From the NCBI GenBank assembly GCA_038882955.1, contig JAVZNC010000002.1:160001-224000 (forward strand): a stretch of DNA of 64,000 nucleotides, given 5' to 3'. The notes beneath the pieces were generated by a model, which saw nothing but the letters and a program-made list of their open reading frames with translations, made no database searches and had not been told where the DNA came from. Positions 1-8,018 of the stretch are shown piece after piece; the first letter of the stretch is position 1, and the number at the start of each line of letters is the position of its first letter. Position numbers and translations under genes: made by a program. This DNA is from Candidatus Bathyarchaeia archaeon (GTDB lineage Archaea > Thermoproteota > Bathyarchaeia > Bathyarchaeales > Bathycorpusculaceae).

Positions 1-839
1 TCTTCTGTAACAATAGAAGCACCAACACGTTCAGCAACCTCGCCAGAAACCCGCAGCAAATCTAACGCTCGTCTAGCATCACCATGCTCAGCAGCAGCTA
101 ATGCAGCGCATAAGCTCAGCGCAGATTCAGACAAGGCGTTTTCGTTGAAAGCCATCTTGGCGCGCTCTAACAATATGTTCCTAAGTTCATTCGCGTCATA
201 GGGCCTAAAAACAATCTCCTCTTCACTAAGCGAACTAAAAACACGCGGATCAAAAAATTCCTTAAGCCGTAGATCATTCGAAATACCAATCAAAGATAGC
301 TTACTTTGCTGTAAAGTTTCATTTATCCTAGTTAATTCATATAGAAGCCCGTCTCCACGCGCTTTTATCAAAGCGTCTACCTCATCCAAAACCACTATAA
401 AAATCAGCTGCGCCGTATCCAGCGCGGTTCGAAATCTGTCAAAAACTTCACCAACAGATAATCCTGTGAAAGGCACGTATGTTCCAATGCTTTGGCACAG
501 ATTTGTGAAAACACGATATCCGGAGCCAGCCATCCGGCAATTTACATAACAAAACTTGACGGGTGCACCATACTCCTTCGCCTTAACTTCGAGGTGACTT
601 AAAACATATTTTGTAACAGCAGTCTTTCCAGTCCCTGTTTTGCCGTAAATAAAAACGTTTGAACAACGTTCCTTTTTTAAGACAGGAGCCACTTTTTCGC
701 CCAGTAGTCTAATTTGTTCCTCGCGATGTGGCAATCTGTTTGGCAAGTAATCATGCCGCAACACACTTCTATCTTTGAATATCTTCGCGTTGCCAATGAA
801 GTTCGTGAATAACTCGTCAAGAATTTTTGTGTCACTCAT
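1..839 (-). CDS. cdc6: Orc1/Cdc6 replication initiator (5' part; runs off window)
   Basis: Hand translation from ATG at 839: MSDTKILDELFTNFIGNAKIFKDRSVLRHDYLPNRLPHREEQI...IYGKTGTGKT (Walker A)...VVLDEVDAL (Walker B)...HGDARRALDLLRVSGEVAER; adjacent to ORB elements. Confidence 0.96.
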   Translation of the reverse strand, partial: MSDTKILDELFTNFIGNAKIFKDRSVLRHDYLPNRLPHREEQIRLLGEKVAPVLKKERCSNVFIYGKTGTGKTAVTKYVLSHLEVKAKEYGAPVKFCYVNCRMAGSGYRVFTNLCQSIGTYVPFTGLSVGEVFDRFRTALDTAQLIFIVVLDEVDALIKARGDGLLYELTRINETLQQSKLSLIGISNDLRLKEFFDPRVFSSLSEEEIVFRPYDANELRNILLERAKMAFNENALSESALSLCAALAAAEHGDARRALDLLRVSGEVAERVGASIVTE

Positions 840-970
840 CTTGGAGCCTTCTCCAATATTTCAAAGGATATGCCTACTCTTCCTTTGGAGTAATAAATGT
901 CTCACTACAGAAAACTAAATTCAAATTTTAACAAACTTTTAAAGTCAACATAAAAAGATGTTTCAAGTCA

Positions 971-992
971 CACCCCACAATTTCCTCTGGAA
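971..992 (-). promoter_or_regulatory. ORB1 (origin recognition box)
   Basis: Reverse complement TTCCAGAGGAAATTGTGGGGTG: TTCCA-N2-GGAAA core plus G-string, matching archaeal ORB consensus. Confidence 0.9.
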
Positions 993-1152
993 TCTTTTTC
1001 ACCCTTAAGGGTAATGTTGATTTCTTCTTTAAAATGAAGAAATATACTCTGGAAGGTAAAGAATAAAAGTACAATTATAAAACTTGTAGTTAAAAAAGTT
1101 AGATTTGTTGATACCTTTGCTTCTAGCAACTAGCAGGTGTAAAAGTGCGGTT

Positions 1153-1174
1153 TTCCAATGGAAAAATAGGGGTG
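1153..1174 (+). promoter_or_regulatory. ORB2
   Basis: TTCCAATGGAAAAATAGGGGTG; inverted relative to ORB1, flanking AT-rich 993-1152. Confidence 0.9.
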
Positions 1175-1356
1175 CGCTAGAATAAGATTAAACAATCTTA
1201 ATGTTTGTTCCCGTTCCTACTTTGTTGCTCTTTGCAACTTTTCACCATTTTTAATTGCTAGAAACCCTTCACAGATTGTGATACTTATGTGAAGTTTAAG
1301 AGAAAATGCTTCTTTTTTCTGCTTAATCTGGAAAAATTGCCGTTTTCATGCGATTT

Positions 1357-1448
1357 AACTGTGAACTTGGCACCCCTGCCTTTCTACTGGAGAATTATAC
1401 TTAGTTCTTTTCCTGTTAGGAAATCAAAAATTAAGAAACTGTGAACTT
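1357..1448 (+). repeat. 12-bp direct repeat AACTGTGAACTT (1357-1368, 1437-1448) flanking ORB3
   Basis: Exact copies 80 bp apart. Confidence 0.7.
1371..1392 (-). promoter_or_regulatory. ORB3
   Basis: Reverse complement CTCCAGTAGAAAGGCAGGGGTG; same 22-bp geometry. Confidence 0.85.
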
Positions 1449-1561
1449 TGTAAAGGTTGAAAATTTGAATTTTTTCCTTTTTTTCGGTTTTTAAGCGCTA
1501 TTTTACGCCTTTTATGTGCAATTTTTCACCATAACACCTATAACTTGTTAACTGCAAAGTT

Positions 1562-2017
1562 GTGAATACACCTAGGTGCACAATGTTAATGCCTGCCCGA
1601 AAGATGCGAGTTGAGCTATTCGACGAAGACGGTAATCGCTATACAATATCATTCGAAGGTCAAATTACTAGAGAGAAGGCTCTTCGCCTTCTAGACCTAG
1701 TAGAACTCTTGGGCGGTGTGCCAACTAGCAGAGGCAACGAAACGAACAGGGGCGTTTTGGAAAATGATTTTTCTAAATACGCTAAGGTACGCGTTGTTGT
1801 TCAGAAGCACTTCCCGCTGGTGTGGTTTACATCACATGACGTTCAACTGGCTTACGAACAAGAATTTAAGGAGCCTATAGGGCTTAGCACAGTGGCAACA
1901 TACCTTTCCAGAATGTCAAGTAAGGGCTTACTCCTGCGGGCGGGGGCTTCAAGAACCCTAAAGTACAAGTTGGCAACCAGCTATCCGAAGGCAATTATTG
2001 AAAAGCAAACACCTTAA
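1562..2017 (+). CDS. Origin-adjacent hypothetical protein: small N-terminal domain plus C-terminal winged helix (start probably 1583/1589)
   Basis: C-term WFTSHDVQLAYEQEFKEPIGLSTVATYLSRMSSKGLLLR..KYKL has a wHTH pattern. Confidence 0.75.
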   Translation: MNTPRCTMLMPARKMRVELFDEDGNRYTISFEGQITREKALRLLDLVELLGGVPTSRGNETNRGVLENDFSKYAKVRVVVQKHFPLVWFTSHDVQLAYEQEFKEPIGLSTVATYLSRMSSKGLLLRAGASRTLKYKLATSYPKAIIEKQTP

Positions 2018-2019
2018 AT

Positions 2020-2748
2020 TTATGATTGCTGCTGGGCGGGCTCGCTTTCCGTCCGCTTTAACAGCTTTCGCATCTCCTCTTTTACACTGTATTTAAATGG
2101 AATTCTACTAGTATCTCTGTCCAAATAGCCTTCCTCGTAGAGTTTCTTCATCAACCGCGCGGTGTGCTCCCTACTAAGCTTAATTCTCTCCTTTATTTCT
2201 GGCGCGGTTTTAGGGCCTTCAGAAGCCAGCATGTCCAGAACTGACACCTCCGTTTCAGTAAGCGGCGCCAAAGCCTTCTCCCGCTTTATAGGAATTGCTG
2301 CTTCAATTTTAGCATCTGAAATGACTGCAGGATGCTTTACTCGTTCCTCAACCATAGAAAGGCGCGCAGCCAAATCCCTTTGCATAGTCATGCTTTCCTG
2401 CAATGCTTTGGCTATTTCATCCACTTTCCTTGTAGTAACTTCTTTTTCACTTACTAATGAGCCGACTCTAGCCTCTAAAGACTCAATTTTCTTGCAAGCA
2501 TCCTCAGCTGCCTTCTTTGCGCTGTCACCTTTCGAGGCTGCGGCATCAACTTTATATGCAATTAAACTAACCCTTTCCGCTTCCTGCTTCAATTGCCTGT
2601 TAAAACTAAAAACTATGTCACCAACAACCGCTTTTGCACTTTCATATTCCTTTCGCACCTTCTGAAGCTGCCTATAATAGGCATAACAAACGGCAACGGT
2701 TAACGCTGCTAAGATTATGGTAAACACCCAAACTTCCACATCAACCAC
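2020..2748 (-). CDS. Membrane-anchored coiled-coil protein with C-terminal MarR-like winged HTH
   Basis: N-term TM (VWVFTIILAALTVAVCYAYY), ~110-aa heptad-rich segment, then LTETEVSVLDMLASEGPKTAPEIKERIKLSREHTARLMKKLYEEGYLDR. Confidence 0.8.
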   Translation of the reverse strand: MVDVEVWVFTIILAALTVAVCYAYYRQLQKVRKEYESAKAVVGDIVFSFNRQLKQEAERVSLIAYKVDAAASKGDSAKKAAEDACKKIESLEARVGSLVSEKEVTTRKVDEIAKALQESMTMQRDLAARLSMVEERVKHPAVISDAKIEAAIPIKREKALAPLTETEVSVLDMLASEGPKTAPEIKERIKLSREHTARLMKKLYEEGYLDRDTSRIPFKYSVKEEMRKLLKRTESEPAQQQS

Positions 2749-2777
2749 TTCCGTGATTCACTTGTGATTTACCTACA

Positions 2778-2793
2778 GACATCACACATCACA
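2778..2793 (+). repeat. 16-bp site GACATCACACATCACA, copy 1
   Basis: Exact match to 2850-2865 and 4897-4912. Confidence 0.85.
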
Positions 2794-2849
2794 GTTTACA
2801 TGTAAAGGATTTAAAGCTTATGTTATTTCTCAGCGTAAAATAACCTCAT

Positions 2850-2865
2850 GACATCACACATCACA
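2850..2865 (+). repeat. 16-bp site GACATCACACATCACA, copy 2
   Basis: Exact repeat 72 bp from copy 1. Confidence 0.85.
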
Positions 2866-2988
2866 AAAATGCGTAAACAGATGGCATGTTCAATGTTAAG
2901 GTAACGCCTTAATTTTGAACGTTTTTCCGATTTAAAGCCGATTTTTGCCAGCAGAAAAGTTAAGATAAAGGAGCATATAAAACTTTCA

Positions 2989-3004
2989 TGTGACTTGTGA
3001 TGTC
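2989..3004 (-). repeat. 16-bp site, inverted copy GACATCACAAGTCACA
   Basis: 14/16 match; overlaps stop codon of 3003..3470; embedded in inverted repeat ATGTGAC-N7-GTCACAT (2988-3008). Confidence 0.75.
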
Positions 3005-3470
3005 ACATATCGCTTGCCGAAGTATCTGATAGCTTTTTTAAGCTTGTTTCGAGTTCTTCTCTGATAATTTTTATGATTTTTAGGTTTTCACTTGTGTTTG
3101 CTATGCTTTTATGGGCCTCTACATATTCTTTTAACCTGTTTGCTATTTCGATGTAGGGGTCGAGAGTTGTACTTTCAAAAACGCCTAAGTATCCTAAAAG
3201 CAGTATGGTGTATATGGACTTTATGACGTTTCCTTTGGCCTGTTTTAAAGTTCTGTTGAATGCACCGCGGCTTATTTTCGCCTTTGTTAACCTCAATCTG
3301 GCTTTTTCATCGTAATTTAGGGTTTTTCCTGATATATTCTCGGCTAAAATGTCTATAAGTAACGTTTCAAGCTGCGTTTTCGTTAAGTGGCTATTTTTGT
3401 AGAGTAATTCTGCTATGGGGTCATTTAAAGAGTGTGTTAACCATAAGTGAATGTTTTCTTTCAGCTTCAA
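3003..3470 (-). CDS. Hypothetical HTH-like DNA-binding protein
   Basis: SHLTKTQLETLL...EKARLR..KISRGAFNRTLKQAKGNV helix-turn-helix-like pattern; TTG start. Confidence 0.7.
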   Translation of the reverse strand: MKLKENIHLWLTHSLNDPIAELLYKNSHLTKTQLETLLIDILAENISGKTLNYDEKARLRLTKAKISRGAFNRTLKQAKGNVIKSIYTILLLGYLGVFESTTLDPYIEIANRLKEYVEAHKSIANTSENLKIIKIIREELETSLKKLSDTSASDM

Positions 3471-3612
3471 ACTTTTTCAACCGCCGACCTTTTATATGAA
3501 TACAGATTTGTATACAAGGTCCCTTTAAACCTTGCTTAAAACATACGTTTCACATTTTTTGCAACGCAAATATTTTATTCTCAGGAGACCAGTGCATAAT
3601 AAGGGAAACTCG

Positions 3613-4785
3613 TTGACTTCTCAATTTAAGCCCGCAGAACGCCTAAAAAACGTAAAACCTTCTGGAATTCGCCGATTTTTCGCTTTAACCCAAGAAATGC
3701 CAGACGCGATCAACCTCAGCGTAGGGGAACCAGACTTTTCCCCTCCGCAACACGCGATAGAAATGGGTTTGAAAGCGGCGAAAGGGGGGAAAACACATTA
3801 CACTCCTACTAATGGCATCCCAGAGTTGCGCGAGGCATTAGCCAAAAAAGCCTTCCGTGAATACGGGCTTAACTATGACCCTAACTCAGAAATATTAATT
3901 ACATCAGGAGGGATTGAAGCCATTTTTCTGGCGCTTTTCGGCTTCGTAAATCCTGGTGATGAAGTTTTGATTCCAGATCCAGGTTTTGTGTGCTACGAGC
4001 CCTGCGTTCGCTTGGCGGGGGGTGTTCCGGTTTCTGTTCCTTTAGTGGAGGAAAATGGATTCAAGCCTTCTGTTGATAATGTGATGTCACTTATCACGGA
4101 TAGGTCACGTGTGATTATTCTGAACTATCCTAACAATCCTACTGGGGCAGCCCTTTCCTTTGATGATGCGGCGGTGTTGGCGAAGATTGCTGTTGAGCGT
4201 GACCTTATTGTGATTTCTGATGAGGTTTATGAAAAAATACTCTATGATGGGACTAAACACTATTGCCTTGCAACCTTCCCTGGGATGCGTGAACGCACAT
4301 TGGTTGTTAATTCCTTTTCCAAGACTTACGCGATGACAGGGCTGCGTATTGGCTTCGTTTACGGTCCTAAAGAGCTAATTTCGCCTCTGTGGCTGATACA
4401 CCAGCATACAATTGCATGCATTAATAGTATCACTCAGTATGTTGCGTTGGCTGCGCTGGAGGGACCGCAAGACTTTGTAGAGGAGATGGTTGTGGAGTTT
4501 GATAGGAGAAGGCAAATGGTTTGTAAGAGGCTTAATGAGATGGGAAGACTTAACTGCTCACTTCCAAAAGGCGCTTTTTACGTTTTCCCTAGCATCAAAA
4601 GTTTTGGTGTGCCTTCAGAACAGTTTGCAGAGTACCTTGCAAGACAAGCGCGTGTACTCACTGTTCCAGGATCTTCTTTCGGGCGTTACGGTGAGGGATA
4701 CATAAGAATTTCTTATGCAGCAGCGTATGAACAATTAGAAGAAGCAATGGATAGAATAGAGAAGGCAATTAGGAAACTGCAATAA
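3613..4785 (+). CDS. PLP-dependent aminotransferase class I/II (aspartate aminotransferase family)
   Basis: NLSVGEPDF, NYPNNPTG, SDEVYE, NSFSKTYAMTGLRIG; TTG at 3613 after purine-rich RBS preferred over 3532. Confidence 0.93.
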   Translation: MTSQFKPAERLKNVKPSGIRRFFALTQEMPDAINLSVGEPDFSPPQHAIEMGLKAAKGGKTHYTPTNGIPELREALAKKAFREYGLNYDPNSEILITSGGIEAIFLALFGFVNPGDEVLIPDPGFVCYEPCVRLAGGVPVSVPLVEENGFKPSVDNVMSLITDRSRVIILNYPNNPTGAALSFDDAAVLAKIAVERDLIVISDEVYEKILYDGTKHYCLATFPGMRERTLVVNSFSKTYAMTGLRIGFVYGPKELISPLWLIHQHTIACINSITQYVALAALEGPQDFVEEMVVEFDRRRQMVCKRLNEMGRLNCSLPKGAFYVFPSIKSFGVPSEQFAEYLARQARVLTVPGSSFGRYGEGYIRISYAAAYEQLEEAMDRIEKAIRKLQ

Positions 4786-4794
4786 GCGTTAAAA

Positions 4795-5628
4795 CTACAA
4801 GCGCTTAGCGCTTTCCTTCAGTTCATCAAAAAGTTCTGGACGTAAATCTTTAAGTGTAGGCACAAATACTTCCACAGGTTTAACGTCACCGTAATTGACA
4901 TCACACATCACAAGGTCTTCTTCATCGTACTTCGCTTGAGTGAGCACCTTACCATTTGGTCCAACAAGTCTACTTCCTCCCCAGAATTGTAGTCCATCTT
5001 CTATGCCGACGAGATTTACATATGCCAAGAGCACAGCGTTTTCCATTGCCCTAGCAACGGTCAACGTTTCGAAAAAGGTTTTCCTAACTGCCGGCGAAGC
5101 TGATATGCAAACTATCAAGTGGGCACCCTTAAGGCGTGTGAGCCTGCTTAATTCTGGAAAGAAAATGTCATAGCAAATTATTAGCCCAACCTTCCCAAGA
5201 TTTGTGGCGAGCGCCACCGCCTCATAGCCTGGTCTAAAATATCTTTTTTCCTCAAAGACGCTGTGCGTTGGGAGGTGCATCTTGCGATATTTGCCAACAA
5301 AACCTTCGGGGCCTACGAGCACTGCTGAATTGTAGATTGTTGCCTTTGTTTTTTCGCTTAGCTCTGGCATGCCAAAGACTACGTATGCTCCCGCCTTTTT
5401 TGCCATTTTTTCGATAGCCTTTGTTGATGGACCAGGTATTGTTTCTGCTAAATTGTATATTTCATCGCGAACCACGTAGCCAGTTAGCGAAAGCTCTGGG
5501 AAAATTATAAGGTCCGCCTTCTTCTTTGCAGCATTTGTTATAATTTTTTCCATTTTTCTCATGTTTTTTTCCTTATCTGCCCGGTAGCAGCTTATTTGGG
5601 CGAGCGCAACCTTGAAATTCTCCTTCAT
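4795..5628 (-). CDS. Nitrilase/carbon-nitrogen hydrolase, candidate glutaminase subunit for NadE
   Basis: E-K-C triad: FPELS, YRKMHLP, ICYDIFFPE; directly downstream of nadE. Confidence 0.9.
   Translation of the reverse strand: MKENFKVALAQISCYRADKEKNMRKMEKIITNAAKKKADLIIFPELSLTGYVVRDEIYNLAETIPGPSTKAIEKMAKKAGAYVVFGMPELSEKTKATIYNSAVLVGPEGFVGKYRKMHLPTHSVFEEKRYFRPGYEAVALATNLGKVGLIICYDIFFPELSRLTRLKGAHLIVCISASPAVRKTFFETLTVARAMENAVLLAYVNLVGIEDGLQFWGGSRLVGPNGKVLTQAKYDEEDLVMCDVNYGDVKPVEVFVPTLKDLRPELFDELKESAKRL
4897..4912 (+). repeat. 16-bp site GACATCACACATCACA, copy 3 (inside nitrilase CDS)
   Basis: Exact match to the intergenic copies. Confidence 0.75.
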
Positions 5629-5644
5629 TTTTTCATCTCCAAAT

Positions 5645-6487
5645 TTAACACACATCCCTTGGGAATCTGAAATCTGCGCCAACAGTCCTATATCCAATTT
5701 TCGCCGTCAATGGCATCCGCCTTTTGTGTTCAGTGGCAAGCCATCTGCGCTTAATTTTTTCGACAAAATCCTCCCTTATGCCTAACTGATTTGCGATTTC
5801 TCTAGTTTCCATGAAATGCTCCAAGCCATAAAGAATCAAATCCAAGACTTCATACTTTATTCCCAACTCCTCTTCTGCAAGCTGTCCCTGCCAGAGTCCC
5901 GGCGATGAAGGTTTTGCTACGATTTCTTCTGGAACACCTATATGCCGTGCAAGTTTTCGAACTTGCGTCTTGTATAAGTCCATGATTGGCGATATGTCTG
6001 CTGCTGCGTCTCCCCACTTTGTAAAGTAGCCCATCATTGTTTCTGACTTGTCTGAACTTCCACATACAAGCATGTTAAGCTTGTTTGCGTAATAGTAGAT
6101 ATAAATCATCCTGGCGCGCGCTTTCATGTTACCCTTGCAGAGATTATCTTGCGCATCAAAGCTTGGTATTGAGCTGTAAAGGGCTTTTAAGACTGGTGTA
6201 ATGTCGATTTTCTCCATTTTTAGGCCGAACTTTTTGGCGACGGCTTCTGCGTGCTTGATATCCTTAACGTTGTATGTTTCTTTTTCTGGCAGCATAAGCC
6301 CAAAAACATTTTTTCCGCCTATTGCGAGTGCAGATAGCGCCGCTACTGTACAACTGTCAATGCCTCCTGATAACCCTAGAACTATGCCATTCACACCAGA
6401 TTTTTTCACATAATCTCTTATGAAGCGTTTTATTTTTGCTTCAACTTCGTTCCAGTCCAATTCAAGAATGTCCAAAGTTAACCTCAA
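5645..6487 (-). CDS. nadE: NAD+ synthetase (single-domain)
   Basis: GLSGGIDS PP-loop, GNMKARARM, GYFTKWGD, DLYKTQV, KPSSPGL. Confidence 0.96.
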   Translation of the reverse strand: MRLTLDILELDWNEVEAKIKRFIRDYVKKSGVNGIVLGLSGGIDSCTVAALSALAIGGKNVFGLMLPEKETYNVKDIKHAEAVAKKFGLKMEKIDITPVLKALYSSIPSFDAQDNLCKGNMKARARMIYIYYYANKLNMLVCGSSDKSETMMGYFTKWGDAAADISPIMDLYKTQVRKLARHIGVPEEIVAKPSSPGLWQGQLAEEELGIKYEVLDLILYGLEHFMETREIANQLGIREDFVEKIKRRWLATEHKRRMPLTAKIGYRTVGADFRFPRDVC

Positions 6488-6587
6488 TGCGCATGCGCCT
6501 CAATGTTTTATGGTTGCGGGCAAGTATTTAAGGACAAACATAAAATAGTGGAGTGTCATAAAATTTTAGGCATAGAAGGAAGTTGGA

Positions 6588-6836
6588 ATGGGACGTAGAA
6601 GAAGAAAAGTCGTTCGCATTCCTAAGAAGCGTTTGCCTAGGTTCTTCTCTTGCCCTAGATGTGGAAAGGAAACTGTTAGGGTTGAAATATTGCGTGAAGA
6701 AGGCCGCGCTGTAGTGGGCTGTAGCAATTGTGGCTTGAAAGAAGAGTTCCAAGTAAAACCTGCACAAGCGGAAGTGGACGTCTACTGCATGTTCACTGAC
6801 AAAATCTACTCTGGCGCCAGAAGCGCAACGGCATGA
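6588..6836 (+). CDS. elf1: Transcription elongation factor Elf1
   Basis: MGRRRRK...FSCPRC...CSNC...VDVYCMFTD. Confidence 0.9.
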
Positions 6837-7615
6837 AACCCAGTATGACGGAGGTTGATGTTATGGTAGGGCCTATCGAGAAATATTTGCTTGAAAAAAT
6901 CGAGTCAGAAGGCGCAATTCACCTAACGCTTATAGACCCCGAAAAAGTTACAGCCTCGCAAGCAGCTAGGGCTGCATACAAAGCCAAGCTTAGCGGAACC
7001 GCAGGAATAATGGTTGGCGGATCAACACTGTCATCGAGTAACCACCTTGACAGCGTTTTAAAGGCTATTAAGCGCGCCGTTGATGTGCCGGTAATCTTGT
7101 TTCCTGGCAATGTGAATGGGATAAGTCGTCATGCAGATGCAATATGGTTTATGTCGCTTTTAAATTCAACAGACCCATACTTTATTGTAGGGGCTCAAAT
7201 TTTAGGGGCGCCCCTTGTTAAGAAGTACCGCTTAGAGCCTATACCTATGGGTTATATAATAGTCGGAGAGGGGGGAACAGCAGGTATAGTTGGTAAGGCT
7301 ATTCCAGTTCCATATGATAAACCTGAAGTTGCTGTTGCACATGCCTTGGCGGGACAGTATTTGGGCATGCGCTTCATTTATTTAGAGGCGGGGTCTGGCG
7401 CGAAAAGGCCCGTTCCTTCTGATATGATACGCGCTGTTAAAAGGTATATCAATGTTCCGCTAATAGTTGGTGGTGGCATAAGGTCAAGGGAGCAAGCTTT
7501 GACGGCAGCGTCTGCTGGCGCTGATGTTATAGTTACTGGTAACATCGTTGAGAGGGCTGACCTTAAGCATAGAGTTTCCGAGATTATTGAGGGTATAAGA
7601 CGCTTTAGGTTGTGA
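6833..7615 (+). CDS. Geranylgeranylglyceryl phosphate synthase (start possibly 6863)
   Basis: [42 protein letters not shown]. Confidence 0.95.
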
Positions 7616-7935
7616 GCAAAGCCTTGACTGCCTTTGAAAATTACTTTAAAGCCCTAAAGAAAGTTTTAGGAGATGAAGGAGCATACTCTGTTTGGCCAGA
7701 TTTTGAACCGCAGTACGATGAGCATGAGTACGCTTGGACCGCAATCAGAGGACTAGGCGAGGTTTTACTGCTAAATTGTGGGGCATGCGATGGGCCATCT
7801 GATCCTAGGCATAAAAGTTGCGAGGAATGCGTCGAAAAGAGAAGTAAAATTGCGAAGGAAGCATATCAAAAAGCAACGGGACATAGAAAAGATAAATGGG
7901 CTGCACTCTTTTTGTGTAGAATTCATACGGGATAA
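7612..7935 (+). CDS. Hypothetical Cys-rich protein
   Basis: Overlapping GTGA coupling with GGGPS; CGAC...CEEC motifs. Confidence 0.65.
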   Translation: MSKALTAFENYFKALKKVLGDEGAYSVWPDFEPQYDEHEYAWTAIRGLGEVLLLNCGACDGPSDPRHKSCEECVEKRSKIAKEAYQKATGHRKDKWAALFLCRIHTG

Positions 7936-8018
7936 ATGGTATTTGCTTTTGTTTCTTTTGACGTGAACTTGTTGTAAAAGCAAAAATAGCTTCCAAAACG
8001 TATTGTGAAGCTTGTGAG

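Follow-up and report, generated by a model that had tools for sequence, protein, structure and literature searches.

Beside a replication origin in the genome of a Candidatus Bathyarchaeia archaeon, we found an old and conserved module of three genes, here called a, b and c, whose putative DNA-binding products flank the chromosomal origin (oriC) and one of which, b, carries a hydrophobic N-terminal anchor. The genes lie near the left end of a 64,000-nucleotide stretch of DNA (the window, below), which is part of contig C2 of a 1.54-Mb assembly (GCA_038882955.1; 31 contigs, completeness 95.6%, contamination 6.1%). This stretch is present wholly or partly in three hot-spring metagenome runs, one of which may be where it came from, and among the sequencing runs listed we found no RNA run that contains it. 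An earlier reading of the DNA, the preliminary description, had given three such genes of 151, 242 and 155 amino acids (aa) at the origin, and the listing of open reading frames (ORFs) bears out these lengths and their coordinates (a, 1562..2017 on the plus strand; b, 2020..2748 and c, 3003..3470, both on the minus strand).

The origin and the three proteins beside it

At the left edge of the window lies the gene of an Orc1/Cdc6 initiator (3..839, minus strand; NCBIfam TIGR02928, 2e-94; Pfam Cdc6_lid, 2.4e-21), represented by its N-terminal 279 codons and continuing to the left of the window. The spacer between orc1 and a, 720 bp of AT-rich DNA (GC 0.31-0.36), holds three origin recognition boxes (ORBs) recognised by the pattern TCCARTRGAAA-N4-GGGGT: an ORB-like box with one mismatch beside the orc1 start (972..991, minus strand), and two boxes with the full pattern at 1154..1173 (plus strand) and, inverted relative to it, at 1372..1391 (minus strand). 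The latter two are separated by an AT-rich stretch of about 200 bp (GC 0.31-0.33), giving the arrangement by which an archaeal oriC is recognised, an orc1/cdc6 gene adjoining inverted ORB boxes around AT-rich DNA. Since the pattern is confined, across the whole assembly, to this spacer and the homologous spacer of a second contig, C26, and since at least one ORB box was found in 10 of the 12 relatives' spacers inspected, the placement of the trio directly beside oriC is sound. Relatives within the order also carry a second Orc1 paralogue. To the left of the window (C2 below 160001) and in relatives (loci L021-L039), Orc1 is followed, in most relatives, by a gene of the Endo_dU family and by the small subunit of DNA polymerase D (DP1), a layout that we take to recall the origins of Thermococcales.

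The product of b combines a membrane anchor (aa 4-25; nt 2674-2739), a coiled coil over approximately aa 28-150 and a winged helix-turn-helix (wHTH) domain of MarR/TrmB type (aa 163-222; nt 2083-2262), as assigned from Pfam, profile and hydropathy. The wHTH scored above the Pfam gathering thresholds of both MarR (PF01047; 6e-8, 32.9 bits vs 24.6) and TrmB (PF01978; 6e-7, 29.6 bits vs 25.6). The N-terminal 19-mer of b has a Kyte-Doolittle value of 2.17, with 1.84-3.07 in all 19 homologues compared within the order, and each of these has a short, nearly uncharged tail before the hydrophobic 19-mer and 3-6 lysine or arginine residues in the 15 residues after it; in most of them the tail spans 0-6 residues, longer ones being over-extended ORF calls. 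This is the signature of a signal anchor, which predicts a membrane-inserted protein with its N-terminus outside and the remainder in the cytoplasm. A profile built from the 19 homologues matched coiled-coil chains (chemoreceptor, tropomyosin) over residues ~30-150 and MecI and MarR over the C-terminus. Across the order, the recognition helix of the wHTH does not vary, an argument for DNA reading by b itself. Source databases name b a 'MarR family transcriptional regulator' or give it automatic coiled-coil labels; by its sequence it departs from a canonical MarR repressor, with a transmembrane (TM) helix and a coiled coil of ~120 aa preceding the wHTH and ~20 residues following it.

Gene c, the most conserved of the three in the order-level search, probably encodes a helix-turn-helix (HTH)-like protein. 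Its structure model, of moderate confidence (predicted local distance difference test score, pLDDT, 69), is all-helical, with a probable HTH of sigma-region-4/LuxR-like type at aa 16-94 and further helices at the C-terminus. In an exhaustive structural comparison of residues 16-90, sigma-70 region 4 domains filled nearly all of the top rows (VIA Z 5-6.3; root-mean-square deviation 2.4-3.5 Å over 57-64 aligned residues in most rows), and EnfR (TON_1525, PDB 8hno) reached VIA Z 4.8 with 25% identity over 52 aligned residues. Because these Z values lie within the range of common helical arrangements, the HTH is probable rather than proven; an Atlas lead from c to a cluster bearing Sigma70_r4 scores only 0.79. 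The same claim in the preliminary description is carried by the likeness of a moderate model to sigma region 4 and finds no counterpart among sequence families: c matched nothing in Pfam or NCBIfam, its 19 homologues gave scattered chance-level Pfam rows only, and the PDB sequence search returned nothing significant (best E 0.42). A complex prediction for c with the cytoplasmic part of b scored 0.00 against a mark of 0.32, and we used it neither for nor against an interaction. Looking for c fused into longer proteins, we obtained and set aside one 362-aa sequence (P0140, on a 1.4-kb contig) that joins a c-like start to an unrelated TM segment and coiled coil, as it is a single record and possibly an artefact of assembly or reading frame.

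Gene a begins at GTG 1562 in the ORF listing; its true start is probably ATG 1589, giving a protein of ~142 aa, because 20 aligned homologues start at MPARKMRVELF. In the structure model (mean pLDDT 74), residues 12-50 form a small domain of a beta-hairpin and a helix, from which a disordered linker leads to a winged helix (72-137; pLDDT about 81-92). This winged helix resembles those of Fur, RosR, MecI and many others (Foldseek probability 1.0 at E ~2e-3; VIA Z up to 11.1), so the model backs the original assignment of a as a wHTH protein; the structural matches leave residues 12-50 uncovered. Sequence comparisons of a gave sub-threshold matches in Pfam and weak wHTH rows in the PDB (E 0.04), and Foldseek against the PDB found nothing at E up to 0.001 for either a or c. 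For all three proteins, no ParB-family row was present among the Pfam matches at E up to 1, and no MerR-type HTH was matched in Pfam or NCBIfam. Likewise, the region 1-8000 contained no RNA family (Rfam, E up to 0.1), and a scan for bacterial-type promoters and terminators stayed at the level of shuffled sequence (8 vs 5.5 and 2 vs 2.2, respectively), its single row of interest being a hairpin at the stop codon of c.

Conservation and linkage to orc1

When 61 genomes from 12 families of the order were queried with the window proteins, we detected b in 53, a in 54, c in 55 and Orc1 in 58. All four genes occur on one contig and in the same order in 43 of 60 relatives, according to coordinate tables read by eye, and in the other relatives with matches the block seems to be interrupted by contig ends. 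In 19 loci chosen for having the whole block on one contig, a script recovered the order DP1-(EndoDU)-Orc1-oriC-a-[HerA pair]-b-c in every locus, and the a gene abuts oriC in each of them. A wider set was picked by the match to c alone, with 6-kb flanks, from species-representative Bathyarchaeia genomes; among the best 80 of 488 such loci, 79 have b as the next gene downstream of c, 75 have a and 47 have orc1, and in most of the loci without orc1 an insert takes up the 6-kb flank.

Beyond the order, a profile of c found members in 176 of 401 sampled genomes of the phylum and in 309 clusters among 1.84 billion representatives; in Caldarchaeum, all relatives of c are labelled 'hypothetical protein'. 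We further examined 20 distant loci from other orders and classes of Thermoproteota, searching up to 8 kb around c; 13 of them contain a b-like gene, 11 contain a and 9 contain orc1. The metabolic neighbours were mostly lost from these loci (aminotransferase kept in 0 of 20, nitrilase in 2 and NadE in 2), which argues that the linkage of the trio to orc1 is more than general collinearity. Of the 13 distant b-like proteins, nine retain the hydrophobic helix at the N-terminus, together with a coiled coil of reduced length and the signature S/T-R-E-H-x-x-R-L, whereas three are without the membrane helix (L056, L057 and L059) and one has an unclear ORF call. The succession of TM helix, coiled coil and C-terminal wHTH noted earlier for b is thus conserved in 19 of 19 homologues in the order and in 9 of 13 beyond it, just as the proposed linkage of the trio to orc1 and ORBs holds across the order and persists in 9 of the 20 distant loci.

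The remaining observations concern the surroundings of the block. A 260-aa ORF at 6833..7615, which from its sequence we take to be geranylgeranylglyceryl-phosphate-synthase-like, has a homologue within 8 kb of c in 5 of the 20 distant loci (L041, L056, L057, L059 and L060), more often than the other metabolic neighbours. Contig C26 of the same assembly (5.9 kb) carries a second copy of the block, with c, b, a, three ORBs and Orc1 at 53-78% protein identity and with heptad and palindrome sites of its own; given the 6.1% contamination, the likeliest source of C26 is another Bathyarchaeia genome, binned together with this one.

In the window, a and b are convergent with 2 bp between their stop codons (2015-2022), and it is at this junction that relatives carry a 2.7-kb pair of genes, both co-oriented with a. 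One encodes a divergent ATPase of the HerA/FtsK superfamily (31 of 80 loci, ~40%; DUF87 PF01935, 4.2e-10, above the cut-off, with the NCBIfam CedD and HerA rows far below theirs), and the other, upstream of it, a 345-aa partner of no family and with no PDB sequence match (29 of 80 loci). The pair is exemplified by L022:5657-8228, L038 retains just a fragment of the partner, and neither gene was found in this assembly. We considered the pair as a PADLOC defence system and rejected it, as only generic HerA rows were returned and none for the partner. The preliminary description had noted the lack of a ParA/SegA ATPase in the window; no ParA/MinD-type match lies above the Pfam cut-off there, several occur elsewhere in the genome, and the HerA/FtsK-like ATPase in the blocks of about 40% of relatives qualifies the statement.

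Repeated sites around b and c and in the origin

The spacer between c and b contains a set of repeated elements built from tandem TGTGAYG heptads and a TGTGAC-RTCACA palindrome. The proximal tandem-heptad site, TGTGATGTGTGATGTC (2778..2793, minus strand), lies over the expected transcription start, 15 nt downstream of the TATA-like box CTTTAAAT of b (2809..2816, minus strand), the position of which is conserved in an order-level alignment read by eye. An identical 16-mer forms the distal site (2850..2865, minus strand), 72 bp from the proximal one, and a composite palindromic site, TGTGAC-TTGTGAT-GTCACA, spans the stop codon of c (2989..3007), where the 16-mer recurs in inverted form with 2 mismatches (2989-3004). 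Degenerate TCACR half-sites follow between the proximal site and the start codon of b (2755..2772), matching AATCACR elements conserved in relatives. Upstream of c by 1.44 kb, a further exact 16-mer (4897..4912, minus strand) is found inside the 3′ end of a gene for a C-N hydrolase (nitrilase). The repeated 16-bp sites reported previously between b and c therefore comprise two exact copies and one inverted copy, with another exact copy outside; the 4 matches compare with 0.33 expected, and 4 were reached in none of 100 shuffles. The outlying copy is read as V-M-C-D-V close to the end of the nitrilase reading frame, and because at least 13 other species carry a site at the same position, coding sequence and putative site appear to be co-constrained.

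The same layout holds in relatives. On the b/c coding strand, the 19 order-level spacers show a TGTGAC-R-TCACA palindrome with a further TCACA over the c stop codon, a distal CTGTGATGTGTGAYGTCATG, the TATA-like CTTTAAAT, a proximal AACTGTGATGTGTGAYG 12-15 nt on, and AATCACR half-sites before the b start. Variants of the site include GTGATATCAC, GTGACGTCAC and tandem heptads. For 79 loci of the 80-locus set, we counted three tandem-heptad sites per spacer in 58, two in 16 and one in 5, and exactly one palindrome at the c stop in all 79; TTTAAAK is present in 42 of these intergenic regions. Outside the spacer, 40 of the 79 loci hold 42 extra sites (approximately 2 expected by our own estimate over 877 kb), and 39 of the 42 lie upstream of c within the genes for the aminotransferase, nitrilase and NadE, at distances of ~0.5, 1.4, 2.0 and 2.6 kb.

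Genome-wide searches with strict patterns of the repeat placed all 7 tandem matches of this assembly at the locus or its C26 counterpart (0.46 expected). In four other genomes (0.9-2.5 Mb), 13 of 13 tandem matches and 5 of 5 palindromes fell either between c and b or no more than ~2 kb upstream of c, against 0-2 matches per strand per genome for the reversed-pattern control. The strict site forms are thus exclusive to this locus in five Bathyarchaeia genomes, and the case in which b binds only unrelated promoters, raised at the outset as one that would refute an origin role, finds no support. The Caldarchaeum genome contains no strict site. Of the distant loci, 9 of the 10 whose b is TM-type or unclear carry GTGAY-RTCAC palindromes, compared with none of the 10 that lack b or have a TM-less one; no b was found genome-wide in three nearly complete genomes that lack it at the locus. 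This distribution ties the candidate sites to the presence of b and suggests b, c or both as their reader.

A related element occurs within the origin itself. Five co-oriented TGTGA(A/T) elements (starts at 1279, 1289, 1360, 1440 and 1561; 1279..1566, plus strand) are spread over the a-proximal half of oriC and the promoter of a. Over 48 origins, we counted 273 TGTGA copies on the strand of a versus 79 on the opposite one, with ~86 expected on both strands together, and 83% of copies continue with A. They sit at conserved distances, between ORB 2 and ORB 3, just past ORB 3 and at the a promoter, and the orc1-proximal half of oriC has no TGTGA sites. At the a promoter, AAGTTGTGAA is found in 27 of the 48 origins, positioned like the site of b downstream of TATA. 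When 122,000 windows of this assembly are ordered by TGTGA density, oriC and the c-b spacer stand near the very top, and the one locus that exceeds them is coding sequence of biased composition. We rejected a TGTGA-rich region of contig C6 (70-75 kb) as a second locus, as it is A/C-rich throughout and has no heptad or palindrome sites. In the 9 distant origins inspected, the array is seen weakly or not at all. Its binder is probably a, the nearest candidate, the alternative being the second Orc1 paralogue of the relatives. In the literature searched, we found no description of a TGTGAA element type in Bathyarchaeia origins.

Possible roles and comparison with known systems

Of the roles considered, we rank first, at somewhat less than an even chance, that b regulates its own gene, binds specific DNA sites from its anchor in the membrane and so holds the flanks of the origin there, because a membrane-integral binder must bring its sites to the membrane and these sites are fixed 1.4-3.5 kb from the ORBs across the class. 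Under this proposal, b would insert through its N-terminal signal-anchor helix with almost nothing outside the cell, and would project into the cytoplasm a coiled-coil stalk of ~120 residues, through which it may dimerise, tipped by the C-terminal winged helix. Alone or with the sigma4-like HTH protein c, it would occupy the putative high-affinity sites (TGTGAY heptads and the TGTGAC-GTCACA palindrome), two around the b TATA box, one over the c stop codon and one or two in genes 0.5-2.7 kb out. Archaeal repressors block polymerase recruitment from a site just downstream of TATA, and since the proximal site sits there, the straightforward reading is that occupancy would repress the promoter of b itself. 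DNA lying ~1.4-3.5 kb from the ORB boxes would in this way be held at the membrane, and the outcome would be an origin-proximal, centromere-like DNA-membrane tether that may act in segregation or replication timing. Separately, a probably binds the co-oriented TGTGAA elements at its own promoter and in the half of oriC nearest to its gene. The preliminary description had arrived at a tether as well, and the linkage and the TM-stalk-wHTH architecture on which it drew hold in the comparisons, with the tethering and segregation themselves argued by analogy. We regard as unlikely a more ambitious version, in which the module forms the centre of an archaeal machinery for anchoring and partitioning the origin: b would be the centromere binder on 4-6 locus-exclusive sites, c its reading or loading partner, a the mark of the origin through the oriented TGTGAA array, and the HerA/FtsK-like ATPase with its 345-aa partner an ancestral motor. 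Were this version true, the module would be the first DNA-membrane origin tether known from archaea, shared by Bathyarchaeia and several other classes of Thermoproteota.

Several observations weigh against the proposed tether. Four Caldarchaeum-type or related loci (L051-L054) keep c and b with no orc1 within 8 kb, and L056, L057 and L059 keep a TM-less b beside orc1. Our queries detected none of the three genes in two genomes of the same order (G045 and G046, 97-98% complete); the G045 contig ends inside oriC, ~230 bp past the orc1 start, so that the absence there may reflect an assembly gap. For c as a partner, the model is of moderate quality (pLDDT 69), and Sigma70_r4 (PF04545) matched 0 of 19 family members at E up to 1. 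The association of palindromes with b agrees equally well with binding by b and with binding by c at the promoter of b, because loss of b removes its promoter too. The palindrome half-sites, ~6 bp apart, are tight for a typical wHTH dimer, and by analogy the heptad periodicity and close half-sites would better suit a sigma4/LuxR-type reader such as c, for which we take NarL as the model of heptad reading. Two sites bracketing the TATA box of b are exactly what plain autorepression needs, and intragenic auxiliary operators are known from looping repressors, such as lac O2. The site at the c stop could fold as a hairpin before a T-rich run and might act as a terminator, and beyond the strict patterns there may be a regulon of degenerate sites.

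The main rival is a self-contained transcription circuit with no structural role, in which a, b and c, as ordinary repressors or activators, regulate themselves and each other, perhaps coupled to the cell cycle or to replication, with the position at oriC providing dosage or timing and the anchoring of b serving regulation by release or sequestration. We consider this possible yet doubtful. The TGTGA-type site just downstream of the b TATA box, the similar position of AAGTTGTGAA at the a promoter in over half of the origins, the MarR/TrmB scores of the b wHTH and its MarR-family database names all speak for it; a regulator with strict sites at its own locus only would have no visible output, though, and the conserved sites inside genes 0.5-2.7 kb away do not belong to promoters. 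Further, b is without a sensor domain outside the membrane, its tail being so short in most homologues, and the linkage to orc1 outlasts general synteny.

Quite improbable, in our estimate, is a sigma/anti-sigma-like pair, in which c reads the heptads, membrane-bound b sequesters or delivers c, and the b wHTH is secondary. The position of c directly upstream of b (79 of the 80 loci and across classes), the resemblance of its residues 16-90 to sigma region 4, its standing as the most conserved of the three and the suitability of tandem heptads for HTHs of sigma4/LuxR type would be accounted for, but c has no sigma region 2, archaea use no sigma factors, Pfam recognises no anti-sigma domain in b, and the invariant recognition helix favours b itself as a reader of DNA. 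We give a similarly small chance to initiation accessory factors, that is, to a, and perhaps b and c, modulating Orc1/MCM at oriC like UBP or WhiP in Sulfolobales rather than positioning DNA. Such a role would explain why co-oriented TGTGAA elements stand between and beside the ORBs and why a abuts oriC in every order-level locus inspected, and the accessible part of the UBP paper raises the question of analogous origin proteins in other lineages (PMC12141716). It fits poorly with an array missing from the orc1-proximal half and weak at best in the 9 distant origins, the second Orc1 paralogue could bind the array instead, and the membrane anchor of b has no link to initiation.

What is known of how archaeal chromosomes are positioned and separated comes, to our knowledge, largely from SegAB of Sulfolobales, and hardly any of the abundant Bathyarchaeia have been brought into culture. 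The locus, which is conserved in hundreds of species and also outside the class, offers a concrete and testable candidate: a membrane-integral putative binder with sites confined beside oriC, two companion HTH proteins and an oriented array in the origin. We found no description of this module, or of an archaeal membrane-anchored origin binder, in open-access papers and bioRxiv preprints. If the proposal is true, b would extend the principle of RacA and RicO to archaea through an unrelated protein; if not, the module would still be an unusually clear case of a regulator family with no strong sites but its own, fixed beside the origin. In either case, the maps of ORBs and TGTGAA elements are usable as origin annotations for Bathyarchaeia genomes.

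Among known systems, UBP of Sulfolobales is, in the portion of the paper available, a small non-initiator protein that binds the short ucm motif inside origins (PMC12141716). According to the same text, it is an abundant nucleoid protein with >300 sites and is restricted to Sulfolobales and their relatives, whereas the putative sites of a, b and c are locus-restricted (PMC12141716). For c, the accessible text on EnfR describes a euryarchaeal repressor of the carbon monoxide dehydrogenase (CODH) cluster (PMC10570040). The model of c shares with EnfR and sigma-70 region 4 a probable small HTH head followed by long helices, with no match at the sequence level and with Z in the common helical range. 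With the MarR/TrmB/Lrs14 regulators, b shares the domain at aa 163-222 that exceeds the Pfam thresholds for MarR and TrmB; the TM helix and long coiled coil take the place of the MarR dimerisation helices, and the chain continues beyond the wHTH for ~20 residues. ToxR and CadC, and the archaeal ArnR, are reportedly single-pass membrane proteins with a cytoplasmic winged-helix domain, where binding to a site brings DNA to the membrane; they are said to have an extracytoplasmic or membrane sensor and to act on distant operons, unlike b, which has essentially no outside part and strict sites at its own locus.

Closer in function is RacA with its ram sites in Bacillus subtilis, reportedly a DNA-binding protein with a coiled coil that attaches sites near the origin to a structure associated with the membrane. 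RacA is said to reach the membrane via DivIVA, to be specific to sporulation and to have an N-terminal MerR-like HTH, in contrast to the C-terminal DNA-binding domain of b. RicO of Staphylococcus aureus, as presented in the accessible part of a preprint, consists of a site-specific DNA-binding domain, a coiled coil and a helix that binds the membrane; it occupies origin-proximal sites and bridges DNA and membrane (bioRxiv 10.64898/2026.03.06.710092). By its sequence, b likewise joins a DNA-binding domain, a coiled coil and a membrane element, with origin-proximal sites. RicO differs in being bacterial and in having an N-terminal DNA-binding domain and a C-terminal amphipathic helix, the reverse of b with its integral N-terminal TM helix and C-terminal wHTH, and in having nine sites over ~700 kb, compared with 4-6 sites within ~3 kb at the b locus; the comparison is one of architecture, not sequence. 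For the archaeal SegAB system, the available portion of a preprint describes SegB sites that are clustered at their own locus and mostly intragenic, and peripheral SegAB foci that hint at membrane tethers (bioRxiv 10.1101/2025.02.07.637068). Within that description, the clustering of sites at the locus of their binder, many of them intragenic, is as seen here; SegB is soluble, partners the ParA-type SegA and has many chromosomal sites, whereas b is predicted to be membrane-integral and the window has no ParA-type gene. By analogy, the closest functional precedents for b would be the bacterial RicO and RacA, and the closest archaeal comparison SegAB.

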